Shown here: in pieces, positions 2,413-10,168 of the stretch
How the letters are laid out: each line of letters opens with the position of its first letter
Position numbering within the stretch: the stretch's first letter is position 1
Assembly (NCBI RefSeq): GCF_001677475.2
Contig: NZ_CP015229.1
Source: Escherichia coli
GTDB lineage: Bacteria; Pseudomonadota; Gammaproteobacteria; Enterobacterales; Enterobacteriaceae
Reading direction: 5' to 3' (one strand)
DNA: 64,000 nt
Program-made: the position numbers and the translations under genes
The notes under the pieces: model-generated
The model's database searches: none
What the model was told of the DNA's origin: nothing
The model's input: the letters and a program-made list of their open reading frames with translations, nothing else

Positions 2413-3918
2413 ATGGAAACCAAAGATCTGATTGTGATAGGTGGCGGCATCAATGGTGCTGGTATCGCGGCAGACGCCGCTGGACGCGGTTTATCCGTGC
2501 TGATGCTGGAGGCGCAGGATCTCGCTTGTGCGACCTCTTCCGCCAGTTCAAAACTCATTCACGGTGGCCTGCGCTACCTTGAGCACTATGAATTCCGCCT
2601 GGTCAGCGAGGCGCTGGCTGAACGTGAAGTGCTACTGAAAATGGCCCCGCATATCGCCTTCCCGATGCGTTTTCGCCTGCCGCATCGTCCGCATCTGCGC
2701 CCGGCGTGGATGATTCGGATTGGTCTGTTTATGTACGATCATCTGGGTAAACGCACCAGCCTGCCGGGATCAACCGGTTTGCGTTTTGGCGCAAATTCAG
2801 TGTTAAAACCGGAAATTAAGCGCGGATTCGAATATTCCGACTGTTGGGTAGACGACGCCCGTCTGGTACTCGCCAACGCCCAGATGGTGGTGCGTAAAGG
2901 CGGTGAAGTGCTTACCCGGACTCGTGCCACTTCTGCTCGCCGCGAAAACGGCCTGTGGATTGTGGAAGCGGAAGATATCGATACCGGCAAAAAATTCACC
3001 TGGCAGGCGCGCGGCCTGGTTAATGCTACCGGCCCGTGGGTGAAACAGTTCTTCGACGACGGGATGCATCTGCCTTCGCCTTATGGCATTCGCCTGATCA
3101 AAGGCAGCCATATTGTGGTGCCGCGTGTGCATACCCAGAAGCAAGCCTACATTCTGCAAAACGAAGATAAACGTATTGTGTTCGTGATCCCGTGGATGGA
3201 CGAGTTTTCCATCATCGGCACCACCGATGTGGAATACAAAGGCGATCCAAAAGCAGTGAAGATTGAAGAGAGTGAAATCAATTACCTGCTGAAAGTGTAT
3301 AACGCGCACTTTAAAAAACAGTTAAGCCGGGACGATATCGTCTGGACCTACTCCGGCGTGCGCCCGCTGTGTGATGATGAGTCCGATTCGCCGCAGGCTA
3401 TCACTCGTGATTACACCCTTGATATCCATGATGAAAACGGCAAAGCCCCGCTGCTGTCGGTATTCGGCGGTAAGCTGACCACCTACCGCAAACTGGCGGA
3501 ACACGCGCTGGAAAAACTGACGCCATATTATCAGGGCATTGGTCCGGCGTGGACGAAAGAGAGCGTGCTGCCGGGCGGTGCCATTGAAGGCGACCGTGAC
3601 GATTACGCCGCGCGTCTGCGCCGCCGTTACCCATTCCTGACCGAATCGCTGGCACGTCATTACGCACGCACTTACGGCAGCAACAGCGAGCTGTTGCTCG
3701 GCAATGCAGGGGCGATAAGCGACCTCGGGGAGGATTTCGGTCATGAGTTCTACGAAGCGGAGCTGAAATACCTGGTGGATCACGAATGGGTCCGCCGCGC
3801 CGACGATGCCCTGTGGCGTCGCACAAAACAAGGAATGTGGCTGAATGCGGAACAACAATCTCATGTGAGTCAGTGGCTGGTGGAGTATACGCAGCAGAAG
3901 TTGTCGCTGGCGTCGTAA
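2413..3918 (+). CDS. glpD: Aerobic glycerol-3-phosphate dehydrogenase GlpD (FAD-dependent)
   Basis: Track ORF 506 aa; conserved start METKDLIVIGGGINGAG (FAD-binding GxGxxG); 501 aa. Confidence 0.95.
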   Translation: METKDLIVIGGGINGAGIAADAAGRGLSVLMLEAQDLACATSSASSKLIHGGLRYLEHYEFRLVSEALAEREVLLKMAPHIAFPMRFRLPHRPHLRPAWMIRIGLFMYDHLGKRTSLPGSTGLRFGANSVLKPEIKRGFEYSDCWVDDARLVLANAQMVVRKGGEVLTRTRATSARRENGLWIVEAEDIDTGKKFTWQARGLVNATGPWVKQFFDDGMHLPSPYGIRLIKGSHIVVPRVHTQKQAYILQNEDKRIVFVIPWMDEFSIIGTTDVEYKGDPKAVKIEESEINYLLKVYNAHFKKQLSRDDIVWTYSGVRPLCDDESDSPQAITRDYTLDIHDENGKAPLLSVFGGKLTTYRKLAEHALEKLTPYYQGIGPAWTKESVLPGGAIEGDRDDYAARLRRRYPFLTESLARHYARTYGSNSELLLGNAGAISDLGEDFGHEFYEAELKYLVDHEWVRRADDALWRRTKQGMWLNAEQQSHVSQWLVEYTQQKLSLAS

Positions 3919-3926
3919 GGATGATG

Positions 3927-3958
3927 CCCGGTTGAAGTGCAACCGGGCTATTTGGATT
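3927..3958 (+). terminator. Rho-independent terminator of glpD
   Basis: Perfect 8-bp stem cccggttg/caaccggg with 5-nt loop, followed by T-rich ctatttggatt, just after the glpD stop. Confidence 0.5.
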
Positions 3959-3969
3959 CCTTAGACTAT

Positions 3970-4575
3970 TTATTGTAAATAATTGAATAACGGCCCCTGA
4001 GCTAAAATCGCCAAACTTAAGCACGTTACCCACTCACCCCATTTCTGCCTCTGGCTTCTATTTTTGCTACACCAATGGCAATAATATCCCAATGCAAAAC
4101 CAACCTGTGCACTAATCGGGCCGACAAAATCAGTCCACGACTGCGGCCAAAAAGGGGAAAAATTCAGGGGAAGCCAGACAAACGTCAGAAAGAAATTTCG
4201 GATATTTTCCAGCAACGCTGATTTCTCTGGAGAAATATAAAGAATGAAATTCGAGAGAATTAACCAGAAATAGACCGGAGAAAAGACCAGCCAGCAATGC
4301 AGTCTGTTTTTTAATTCAGGAGGCGTTCTGCGGGAGAATTGCCAACCGATGCCCCACATTACACTGAAAAAAAATGCATATTCAACCATTAACTCAAGTT
4401 GTAATTCCTGAAGAGAAATACGCACAACCAGGAGCGGAAAGGAGAATGTTATTTCTGCCAGAAAAGTTAACGTGAATATAAGTACGGCTAAGACAATAAC
4501 CGTCGGCCATACCAATACTGGCACGATAACAAAACCGAGAATTACAGGGGGAATATAAAGCCGGAATTTAATCAT
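3970..4575 (-). CDS. Hypothetical small multi-pass membrane protein (island ORF-D), last gene of a four-gene operon
   Basis: 201-aa ORF, several long hydrophobic segments, AT-rich codon usage unlike flanking genes; start 2 nt after the stop of the upstream ORF (translational coupling). Confidence 0.6.
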   Translation of the reverse strand: MIKFRLYIPPVILGFVIVPVLVWPTVIVLAVLIFTLTFLAEITFSFPLLVVRISLQELQLELMVEYAFFFSVMWGIGWQFSRRTPPELKNRLHCWLVFSPVYFWLILSNFILYISPEKSALLENIRNFFLTFVWLPLNFSPFWPQSWTDFVGPISAQVGFALGYYCHWCSKNRSQRQKWGEWVTCLSLAILAQGPLFNYLQ

Positions 4576-4577
4576 TT

Positions 4578-5372
4578 TTATTTTCCTGGTGATTCGGATG
4601 ATGCGTCATACATCGCGCATAAACACTCATCAATCATCCAGTCGTCTACCCAGACCTGATGCTGTGTACCCTGTTCTGGCTGCTTTGGTGGGTTCTCAAT
4701 CGCCTGCCGCGCGCGTTCTTTCAGGATGGATTGATTGTTGAAGGCCCAGGCATTGATTTGGGCGGTAATGGCATTATCGATATCGTCATGGTTATCTCTG
4801 ATATAACCTTCACGATACTGGTTCAATAAACAGGCAAGTGAAGCTGCCGACCAAAAGCCGGGAATTGAATTAACGGCATCAAGCAACGGCGCAATGGCGA
4901 TATCGGCACGGAAAAACATTTCCAGCATATACTGTAATTCGACAGCTTCATCGCCGGATACCCAATCAGCCATATACTGGCAGGCAAATCGCTGCAATAT
5001 TGCCCGTTCATCCGCACGCCAGTTTTCTTTGTTGGCAAGGTTGATACGGCGCAGAGAAAAAACTTCGTGAATATTGTCAAAATACCCCTGTGCAACAAAT
5101 TCCAGTAAACGCGGAAGAAAATAGCGGACCTCATCGCTATTTTGCGGATCGGGTCCTGGGCTACTATTCCAGGCATTGATTAAGGAATACGAGATCGCTC
5201 GTAACGATGTACTCCGTAATACCTTTTGTTCCTGCTGACTCAGGCAATATTCACAACAAACCACAAATTTCTGCGGCACCGGATAGCGACGAAAAATATG
5301 ATAAATCTGCTCAATTAATGCCTGCATGGCGGGGCTGGGTTGCATAATTACCCCCTCGCCCGCTGGTCGCAT
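4578..5372 (-). CDS. Hypothetical protein, no recognisable family (island ORF-C); probably cytoplasmic
   Basis: 264-aa ORF with no TM segments; alternative start at internal Met (about 5345) lies 2 nt downstream of the ORF-B stop; tightly coupled to flanking ORFs. Confidence 0.6.
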   Translation of the reverse strand: MRPAGEGVIMQPSPAMQALIEQIYHIFRRYPVPQKFVVCCEYCLSQQEQKVLRSTSLRAISYSLINAWNSSPGPDPQNSDEVRYFLPRLLEFVAQGYFDNIHEVFSLRRINLANKENWRADERAILQRFACQYMADWVSGDEAVELQYMLEMFFRADIAIAPLLDAVNSIPGFWSAASLACLLNQYREGYIRDNHDDIDNAITAQINAWAFNNQSILKERARQAIENPPKQPEQGTQHQVWVDDWMIDECLCAMYDASSESPGK

Positions 5373-6055
5373 GTAAATGGTTGATAAACCAAACGAGCAT
5401 TCGCCGCATTCAGGCGAATAATGGCACTACGAGAGAGGGAAAAGCTGGGGCGAATGCAATAATTACAGTCCCGACAGCTATCCTCTGTGCAATTTTCCAC
5501 TGAGTAATGACGCGCGTAGAGTTTCAGTTCAGCCTGCTTATCGCGAAATCCGCGTAAACTGTTATCGCTATGAAATTTCCAGGCTTCTTTAAACACCTGA
5601 AAGATATAGACATCCTCAATCCAGGAGTCACATTTTTTAAGCGGGCGCTTTGCTATGATCACCCGCTCCGGGTTTAGCATCGCCGTAAAATGAACGGTGA
5701 AGTCATTTGTCGTATTCAGGTCACATTGAACATCTGGTACATCACTGATATAGGGGTCAAATCCAAAATCAGCACCACAGGCACAAAGACGACCGATCGT
5801 GGTGGTATCGAGGGAAAATCCCGGCCATACATTGCTGGACGTTAAGCCAATATTTAATGTGACATTATATCGAAGCAATCCCTCAAGACCGTCAGCACCG
5901 ACGAACTTTTCCCCTTCATCCAGGACCTGATTAATGAGTTGTTGAACAATACCTTCATCCCAGTATGCCGATTTGCAGTTGGCAATCGTAATATCCACGC
6001 CTGTGAAAGGATCAGTACCAGCGAGGCTTGCAAATAATGTATTAACTAATTCCAT
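5348..6055 (-). CDS. Hypothetical cysteine-cluster protein (island ORF-B), candidate metal or Fe-S binding
   Basis: 235-aa ORF with C-terminal C-x4-C-x2-C-x2-C cluster (NCTEDSCRDCNYC) and further Cys residues; not the CxxxCxxC radical-SAM spacing. Confidence 0.6.
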   Translation of the reverse strand: MELVNTLFASLAGTDPFTGVDITIANCKSAYWDEGIVQQLINQVLDEGEKFVGADGLEGLLRYNVTLNIGLTSSNVWPGFSLDTTTIGRLCACGADFGFDPYISDVPDVQCDLNTTNDFTVHFTAMLNPERVIIAKRPLKKCDSWIEDVYIFQVFKEAWKFHSDNSLRGFRDKQAELKLYARHYSVENCTEDSCRDCNYCIRPSFSLSRSAIIRLNAANARLVYQPFTCDQRARG

Positions 6056-6069
6056 TTTTATTACCCGCC

Positions 6070-7587
6070 TTAATGCAACGTTTTATACATCGGCACATAA
6101 CCCACGTCTTCTACCAAACTCTGCCCCTGCGGCGTTAAAAACCATTCAACCAGTTTTTGTGTTTCTGACGTCATATTTTCCCGCGTTACCATAAAGGCAT
6201 CGACGATATAGGGATATTTGCCATTGCGAATGTTTTCCGCAGTCGGTGCAATACCGTTAATCGCTAACAATTTGATATTCTTATCGGCATTCATTTGTGT
6301 TGCGTAATAGCGGAAGGTATAACCTATTGCGTTGTTTGTATTACGGTATTCGGCAACGACTTTAATCATTCCCTCCATCACACTTGCCACTTCGGTTTCC
6401 TGCGGCGAGATCATACGGACATTTTTCATGACCTGTAATTGCATCACCGTCTGACTGCCAGAGTCTTCCGGGCGTTGCCAGGTCTGGATCTCCTGATCGT
6501 TACCGCCAACAGTACGCCAGTTGGTAATTGCGCCACTAAAAATGTCTCGCACTTGTTGTTCAGTCAGGGAATTGACTGGATTATCAGCATTGACGATAAA
6601 AACAAATGCTTCACGGGCAAAGGGGGTGTACAGCAAAGTGACACCAGATTCCTTTGCACGTTTTTTCTGCCCACCGGAAGGTTGCGCCACGAAAATAATA
6701 TCAGCATCACCCTTAACGATTTTGTTATATGCTTCTGGCGTACGAGAGTTATCCAGATAATCCCAAACGTGAAAATCCTCTGGTATTATGCTTAACGCAT
6801 AAAAGGCAGAAGCATAAATTGGGTACGCCGCCGTGGCACCATCGATTCGCGGCCAGTTTTGCGTAAACTGAATTTGCGGTTTGCCACGCAGCGGCGTCAG
6901 TCGATTATTGAGTTTATCGGGTCGCCAGGCCCAGATATCAATATTTTCGCGTACACCAACACCAGGGTTTTGCTGCTTATATAAATGGGCCTGATACCCA
7001 GCGACAATACCAAGTAAGAGAAGTAGAAACAGGAGTAAGTTACGGCAACGTAGCCCGGACGTGCCGGTTAAAGGATGCCTTGTCGGCCAGCCGTATCCCA
7101 GCGAAAAACTGATATGCGTTCCAACGGGAATAATGACTATCCACCAGTACTCACCACCGACTAATGAGACTAACAAAACACCCAGCCAGGGAAGCATAAG
7201 ATCTGCCAACCAACCTGAAACCATCTGGCGAAATTGATAATCTGCCAGATGTAGCGTGATTATCCAGCCAACCAGGATTAATAAAGCAGGAACTAAAAAA
7301 AGACATTGTCGCCAGGCGGCTATTTCTCTGTTTTCTGGTGCGCTATCGCCCGCCCACACTCGCCCAGAGAAAAATAGCAGTAATGCGCCCAGCGTCAGCA
7401 TAAAGACGTTAAGTAGAAGATAAATTGTTGGCGTAAAGAGTAAATTGCAAAACTCAAGAATAGCGGCAAGCCCGGCCCCCAGCATGGCAATAACCGCCGC
7501 CAAAAACTGCGCCAGAATGGGGATGCCGAAAAAAGTCATTACCAGCGAGGTCAAAATCCATTTTCTGTTTTGCATTATTCTTTCCAT
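6070..7587 (-). CDS. Polytopic membrane protein fused to a PstS-like (type-2 periplasmic binding protein) phosphate/oxyanion-binding domain (island ORF-A)
   Basis: 505-aa ORF; N-terminal ~200 aa with about 6 hydrophobic helices; C-terminal ~280 aa with PstS-like motifs (AAYPIYASAF, DADIIFVAQPSGG, RPEDSGSQ, NAIGYTFRYYA); possible alternative start 4 codons downstream. Confidence 0.65.
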   Translation of the reverse strand: MERIMQNRKWILTSLVMTFFGIPILAQFLAAVIAMLGAGLAAILEFCNLLFTPTIYLLLNVFMLTLGALLLFFSGRVWAGDSAPENREIAAWRQCLFLVPALLILVGWIITLHLADYQFRQMVSGWLADLMLPWLGVLLVSLVGGEYWWIVIIPVGTHISFSLGYGWPTRHPLTGTSGLRCRNLLLFLLLLLGIVAGYQAHLYKQQNPGVGVRENIDIWAWRPDKLNNRLTPLRGKPQIQFTQNWPRIDGATAAYPIYASAFYALSIIPEDFHVWDYLDNSRTPEAYNKIVKGDADIIFVAQPSGGQKKRAKESGVTLLYTPFAREAFVFIVNADNPVNSLTEQQVRDIFSGAITNWRTVGGNDQEIQTWQRPEDSGSQTVMQLQVMKNVRMISPQETEVASVMEGMIKVVAEYRNTNNAIGYTFRYYATQMNADKNIKLLAINGIAPTAENIRNGKYPYIVDAFMVTRENMTSETQKLVEWFLTPQGQSLVEDVGYVPMYKTLH

Positions 7588-7599
7588 TCTTTCTGAATG

Positions 7600-7645
7600 G
7601 CGAAATTATACTCCCCGAGTCCCCTTGCCCCTTCTGGACACTTTT
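7600..7645 (-). promoter_or_regulatory. Candidate promoter of the island operon
   Basis: Minus-strand TATAAT (plus 'attata' about 7605-7610) roughly 20-35 nt upstream of the ORF-A start, directly downstream of the glgP terminator. Confidence 0.3.
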
Positions 7646-7659
7646 CCGAAATGATGGCG

Positions 7660-7685
7660 AAAAAAACGGGACCCTTTGGCCCCGC
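7660..7685 (-). terminator. Rho-independent terminator of glgP
   Basis: Minus-strand hairpin cggggcc-aaag-ggtcccg followed by a run of 7 U, about 20 nt after the glgP stop. Confidence 0.45.
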
Positions 7686-7702
7686 TCTATTTATTAGTGA
7701 AA

Positions 7703-10168
<2,466 letters not shown>

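Follow-up and report, generated by a model that had tools for sequence, protein, structure and literature searches.

A candidate envelope module in the variable glpD-glgP island of Escherichia coli: a paralogue of the YzgL membrane domain beside a member of an unnamed helical family

Layout of the glpD-glgP insert

The window analyzed here, which is the whole 64,000-nucleotide stretch taken from the E. coli contig NZ_CP015229.1, begins with three minus-strand genes (glpR, glpG, glpE) and the plus-strand gene glpD; an insert of 3.7 kb separates these from the minus-strand genes glgP, glgA and glgC. The insert consists of four minus-strand genes in the order A-B-C-D, with C and D at its 3' end. 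Its GC content is 0.42 to 0.47, compared with 0.52 to 0.57 in the flanks, and its presence varies among strains, in agreement with an earlier note on this sequence that had spoken of an island. The genes and signals of the region are the following.

2413-3918, plus strand: glpD, convergent with gene D
3926-3948, between gene D and the convergent glpD: GC-rich hairpin from the terminator scan, 9-bp stem with 7 GC pairs
3970-4575, minus strand: gene D, 201 aa, inner-membrane protein with about five transmembrane helices and without a periplasmic binding domain
4578-5345, minus strand: gene C, 255 aa, cytoplasmic all-alpha protein with an N-terminal three-cysteine cluster and an FLPRxLE motif
5348-6055, minus strand: gene B, 235 aa, soluble, cysteine-rich, without a Pfam family
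6070-7587, minus strand: gene A, full-length YzgL; the longest open reading frame has 505 aa, and the likely start is the ATG at 7575
7605-7610, minus strand: perfect -10 hexamer TATAAT, read from the sequence, without a recognizable -35 element; candidate operon promoter

Genes A and B are separated by 14 nt. At the B-C junction, the TAA stop of B (5350-5348) is followed by two nucleotides (tt) and the ATG of C at 5345; at the C-D junction, the TAA stop of C (4580-4578) is followed by two nucleotides (aa) and the ATG of D at 4575. The Shine-Dalgarno sequences GAGGGGG (5357-5351) and AGGAAA (4587-4582) lie 5 to 6 nt ahead of the start codons of C and D, respectively, which fits the layout of translationally coupled genes. 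The 2-nt junctions and the Shine-Dalgarno sequences are kept in other E. coli alleles.

The earlier note had placed two minus-strand open reading frames here, D with 201 aa at 3970-4575 and C with 264 aa at 4578-5372, and had spaced them by 2 nt. Both frames are present, 264 aa being the longest one for C, and so are both 2-nt gaps. The length of C had to be revised because a 2-nt gap behind B requires the ATG at 5345, which makes the 264-aa product and the 2-nt spacing mutually exclusive. The start at 5372 overlaps B by 25 nt and lacks a Shine-Dalgarno sequence, and PGAP uses the start of the 255-aa version in all E. coli alleles examined.

The hairpin at 3926-3948 was the only strong terminator-like hairpin that the terminator scan returned in the region, and it is likely a bidirectional terminator that ends the operon. 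At the other end, the TATAAT hexamer sits about 20 to 30 nt upstream of the start codons of A. It was not picked up by a two-hexamer promoter scan; such a -10 element without a -35 partner would fit an activator-dependent promoter. No Pho box was evident upstream of A when the sequence was read by eye, and the region contained no Rfam RNAs or notable repeats.

Distribution and integrity of the island genes

The full island was found at a coverage of at least 80% in 2431 of 5426 complete E. coli genomes, mostly with 90 to 95% DNA identity. The C-D stretch, at the same coverage, was present in 2954 of them, and the DNA divergence among its alleles reaches about 9%. About 1080 further E. coli genomes, including those of the O55/O157 type, carry a diverged D-like allele (about 78% nucleotide identity). 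The island is dispensable, since K-12-like strains keep only a remnant; this piece, annotated as yzgL, is the stretch of about 350 bp closest to glgP (equivalent to 7350-7700 of the window). The variable region between glpD and glgP corresponds to O-island 133 of O157. In ExPEC, the auf fimbrial operon occupies this site, which has been published as GR24 (PMC12928451). One gene of O-island 133 was weakly expressed, with a twofold higher level in an rpoS mutant (PMC2907692); the literature on yzgL and the O157 locus tags otherwise amounts to incidental mentions.

Several types of alleles occupy this site in E. coli: A-B-C-D, A-C-D, the auf operon with B-C-D, auf with A-C-D, and, in the O157-type allele L008, gene A with a 330-aa PstS-like lipoprotein and a 200-aa D-like protein. 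Gene B is missing from the alleles L006, L024 and L025. In ExPEC-type alleles the auf chaperone-usher operon fills the glgP side, where it either replaces A and leaves B-C-D or adjoins A-C-D (6335-10222 in L007, 6061-8974 in L023 and 6875-8983 in L025, the window equivalent being approximately 6056-7700). Two metagenomic enterobacterial contigs extend this variety at the glgP-glpD site: L003 has three A-type or PstS-like genes together with C and a D-like gene, and L005 has two A-type genes, B, a gene for a YbbD-like lipoprotein and C, without D. Genes C and D were adjacent in every examined E. coli allele that contained C, as well as in L003, where they overlap by 13 nt. A further locus, L009, encodes two C paralogues without A or D. 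A, B, C and D recombine as separate modules.

Contig L003 also encodes a 98-aa product (L003_98, 3760-4056) in which the first 72 or so residues of an A-type membrane domain are followed by the final 20 or so of the PstS-like domain. It looks like an internal-deletion remnant, and the yzgL remnant of K-12 may have arisen in a similar way.

A search for decay in orthologues, which had been named earlier as a check on these genes, found them intact in all nine alleles sampled. The dN/dS values summed over the nine alleles were 0.04 for glpD, 0.15 for A, 0.17 for B, 0.20 for C and 0.27 for D; in comparisons of close alleles, the value for D was 0.43 to 0.66. C and D are genuine genes under purifying but relaxed selection.

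Could C and D nonetheless be functionless, decaying leftovers of yzgL-type duplications and inserted cassettes, kept by drift? Many strains lack the island or keep it in reduced form, as illustrated by the K-12 remnant and L003_98; IS1 insertions and truncated or fused products occur; the dN/dS of D between close alleles is elevated, and the expression reported for the O157-island gene is weak. We nevertheless regard this explanation as improbable, given nine intact alleles with overall dN/dS well below 1, the conserved 2-nt junctions and Shine-Dalgarno sequences, the presence of C and D in 2954 genomes whose alleles have diverged as far as described above, and the conservation of C homologues across phyla.

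Individual strains do carry damaged copies. IS1 insertions lie within the C-D stretch in some of them, with truncated or fused products (H21, H36, H42, P0037, P0135, P0140), and in one ExPEC genome a 342-aa product, apparently a C-D fusion, aligns with a portion of C and with almost the whole of D. This shows sporadic inactivation of C-D in some strains. A separate observation concerns the neighboring core gene: the synonymous divergence that separates glpD of the window from that of eight other E. coli alleles was 0.12 to 0.21, which seems high for a core gene and may reflect recombination or hitch-hiking beside a variable site.

Gene D and the PstS-like protein encoded by gene A

The product of gene A combines an N-terminal multi-pass membrane domain with a PstS-like periplasmic binding domain. 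Residues 247-485 match Pfam PBP_like_2 (E 8e-30); the protein also matches TIGR02136 (E 5e-35) and solved PstS structures with an E value of 5e-19, the R-x-x-x-S-G-(S/T) anion-binding motif being aligned. YzgL-type proteins are annotated as 'PstS family phosphate ABC transporter substrate-binding protein'. Some canonical motifs are gone from the domain in A, with SRT-type residues in place of GSG as judged by eye. By these matches, the C-terminal domain of A is nonetheless a genuine homologue of PstS, the periplasmic phosphate-binding protein of the Pst ABC transporter. The island differs from the Pst system in having no permease or ATPase genes of the PstC/A/B type, and while PstS is free or lipid-anchored, the binding domain of A is tethered by a multi-pass membrane domain. 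C and D show no PstS homology; PBP_like_2 (PF12849 / TIGR02136) was matched by gene A only.

The earlier description of C as soluble and of D as a multi-pass membrane protein was borne out: C has no hydrophobic segment, and the AlphaFold2 model of D contains five long helices (pLDDT 69.8, which denotes moderate confidence; pTM 0.65). The predicted cytoplasmic loops of D, around residues 81-94 and 169-182, are strongly basic. From the helices and these two loops, D would have its N terminus inside and its C terminus outside, a topology that would turn the C-terminal domain of A toward the periplasm.

D had previously been considered to belong to no assignable family. It matched no family in Pfam, NCBIfam or PHROGs, and its one PADLOC match was weak (E 0.043 over 30 residues), so that the absence of a named family still stands. 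A relative was found all the same, in gene A of the same operon. Direct BLASTP of D against A remained below significance (E 0.21), and the homology becomes visible only through intermediates and profiles. The D-like protein L003_183 matches the D of the window at E 4e-27 and, in turn, A-type proteins in their N-terminal membrane domains, with E values of 2e-11 (L005_507), 3e-9 and 1e-3 (all by BLASTP). When a profile built from eight D proteins was aligned by HHalign with one built from five A-type N-terminal domains, the probability was 97.9% and the E value 4.6e-13 over 164 collinear columns.

Structural comparison pointed to the same type of protein. In a Foldseek search of AFDB50, the best matches to the D model outside its own family were to 'PstS family' proteins of 507 and 499 aa from Salmonella and its relatives, in each case to the N-terminal part (query TM 0.70 for the 507-aa Salmonella protein and 0.58 for the 499-aa one), and no other membrane family matched. 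D and YzgL-type proteins share VP(L/I)L in the first transmembrane helix, G-W/R after the second and GF-LGYY ahead of the last helix. They belong to the same operon and locus, and they are collinear over a multi-pass domain of approximately 170 residues, which in the YzgL-type proteins has no Pfam family either. The PBP_like_2 domain is wholly absent from D, and identity to the fused versions is only 17 to 24%. By these profile and model comparisons, D is a paralogue of the membrane domain found at the N terminus of YzgL-type proteins, without the binding domain.

In L008, the gene for the 330-aa PstS-like protein encodes a lipobox and overlaps the start of the 200-aa D-like gene by 1 nt. The lipoprotein and the D-like protein of such O157-type alleles amount to a split version of the fused A. 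Mainly on the strength of this split-versus-fused pattern, we propose that D cooperates with a PstS-like binding domain, which would be part of the same polypeptide in A and a separate lipoprotein in O157-type alleles.

The earlier note had likened the four genes to membrane-effector defense or signaling modules. A low-GC accessory island that encodes two membrane and two soluble proteins, tightly spaced and uncharacterized, does resemble a four-component antiphage system of that kind. Nothing beyond this layout speaks for such a system. PADLOC-DB v2 gave no match for A, B or C, that for D being the weak one noted above, and scans of all four proteins detected no nuclease, NTPase, TIR, SIR2 or other effector domain. 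The four genes vary independently of one another from strain to strain, and their neighbors are genes of glycogen and glycerol metabolism or the auf operon. C is absent from phage records, and in plasmid records it was found only in a 4.8-Mb E. coli entry and in three large Deinococcus plasmids (0.3 to 0.5 Mb). We consider a defense system of A, B, C and D very unlikely.

Gene C, its relatives and a proposed role

C is predicted to be a confidently folded helical protein. It had no match in Pfam, NCBIfam, PADLOC or PHROGs, and, apart from a few metagenomic relatives with about 50% identity, its close homologues all come from Escherichia and Shigella. A profile search over 1.84 billion cluster representatives (clusters at 50% identity) returned at least 960 proteins from several phyla at E values up to 1e-3, of which 242 had E values up to 1e-10. 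Most are stand-alone proteins of 240 to 270 aa. None of 20 diverse members belonged to a Pfam family and none of 10 to an NCBIfam family, and a sequence-profile search of the PDB gave no matches even at an E value of 10. By sequence, C is a member of a large, phylum-spanning, unnamed family without a described function.

The hallmarks of the family are an N-terminal helix, a three-cysteine cluster and the FLPRxLE motif. Of 161 members with an FLPRxLE-like motif, 157 have some form of the cysteine cluster. It reads CxxCC in 91 members and CxCxxC in 38, while the Escherichia proteins have CCxxC. We had considered a zinc site made of the N-terminal CCxxC and a C-terminal CxC. The CxC pair of Escherichia is not conserved outside Enterobacteriaceae, which leaves the N-terminal cluster alone as a feature of the family. 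DUF1266 (YbeR/YbeU), a Foldseek lead at rank 35, was likewise discarded after hhalign gave it a probability of 0.15%. HEAT/MIF4G-like alpha-helical repeat proteins are among the nearest known comparisons.

To place these relatives in their genomic context, we scanned one genome per GTDB species with a degenerate DNA pattern designed by hand to fit the FLPRxLE region. The pattern occurred in 73 places, 68 of which encode true members of the family. Most loci are single-copy. Apart from local synteny within genera, all-against-all BLAST of 265 neighbors revealed no partner that recurs, and members outside Enterobacteriaceae stand alone, with no A- or D-like neighbor, so the core function of C cannot depend on D. 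When the 149 neighbors at positions ±1 and ±2 of the 68 loci were searched with Pfam, the families listed were assorted housekeeping ones. No toxin, immunity or defense domain recurred, in the sense that no toxin domain occurred in two or more neighbors among the families listed, a criterion that singletons could escape.

Gene B lacks a Pfam family as well; its homologue in L005 (L005_234) is 55% identical. The PGAP name 'YbbD family protein', given to some window-type alleles of B, rests on an N-terminal partial match to NF007301 of 25 bits against a cutoff of 373, and we did not retain it. Neither C nor D matched the YbbD family (NF007301 / Pfam YbbD_head).

The main rival to an envelope role is that C, and perhaps B, is a stand-alone immunity protein against Rhs, CDI or type VI secretion toxins, in an orphan-immunity cassette that would have built up at a strain-variable site and be co-transcribed in the manner of a small polyimmunity locus. 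As in immunity proteins and polyimmunity loci of polymorphic toxin systems, the genes are small and lack catalytic motifs, some genomes have divergent paralogues in tandem, and cassettes vary with the strain; all-alpha immunity proteins of the HEAT type provide a precedent (Zhang et al. 2012, PMC3482391). Tandem divergent C paralogues occur in L009, L012 (three copies) and L049, and in L014 a member of the family stands in an array with SMI1_KNR4/SUKH and SUKH-4 genes. Contig L005 has a 139-aa lipoprotein gene (L005_139, 4683-5102) between its B-like and C-like genes that is homologous (E 1e-12) to K-12 ybbD, and in K-12 the ybbD pseudogene (L099, 6641-7131) directly follows ylbH, an orphan Rhs C-terminal fragment. 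The cassette content of the island varies between strains, and the dN/dS of its genes exceeds that of core genes.

Other features set C apart from the immunity proteins of polymorphic toxin systems. No toxin gene is present in the island of the window, and none recurred beside C-family genes at the 68 loci, where no neighbor family recurs and most genomes have a single copy; several other loci lie in plain housekeeping surroundings. C and 20 diverse relatives matched no Imm or SUKH family of Pfam. A three-cysteine cluster of the near-universal kind found in this family would be unusual for an immunity protein. The survey of loci lends no statistical support to C as an orphan immunity protein, and we judge this role rather unlikely.

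We favor a different reading, in which the island encodes an accessory envelope module; A and D would bind or sense a phosphate-type anion in the periplasm, and C would be their cytoplasmic partner. We assign this reading a probability of about 40%. A and D would together form the membrane module, and C, with B where it is present, would be made in step with D and could serve as a metal- or redox-dependent adaptor. What we have shown is homology and conservation, from which we infer both the interactions and the ligand. In this reading C and D are the last two genes of the yzgL operon, in an accessory module under relaxed purifying selection that is not a defense system. A bolder version, for which we see little likelihood, makes C the founding described member of a helical family with a conserved three-cysteine metal or redox site and has C recruited in Enterobacteriaceae, along with D, to relay the ligand state of YzgL as a membrane-tethered PstS-like receptor. 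Such a relay would constitute an envelope anion-sensing pathway of a kind not recognized before.

None of our results overturns current understanding. They concern a gene pair that is present in over half of the complete E. coli genomes, including ExPEC, and that is annotated just as 'hypothetical protein'. D as the detached membrane half of YzgL, together with the O157-type split YzgL, gives the locus its first structural logic. The C family, with its cysteine triad and at least 960 clusters that have no Pfam, NCBIfam or PDB entry, is a target for curation and structural work.

Two minor observations concern the surroundings of C homologues. In L009, from another enterobacterial lineage, the two paralogues (262 and 261 aa, 42% identical; 7001-8586) are flanked by genes for an aldo-keto reductase and a beta-lactamase-family protein, and nothing resembling A, B or D is encoded near the pair. 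In Bacteroidota, runs of small, similar-sized genes encoding about 181 to 199 aa, as well as a PIN-like/antitoxin-like pair, were seen near C-family genes (L050, 5107-10042; L072, 4155-4813), which suggests that some members of the family sit in variable accessory gene clusters.
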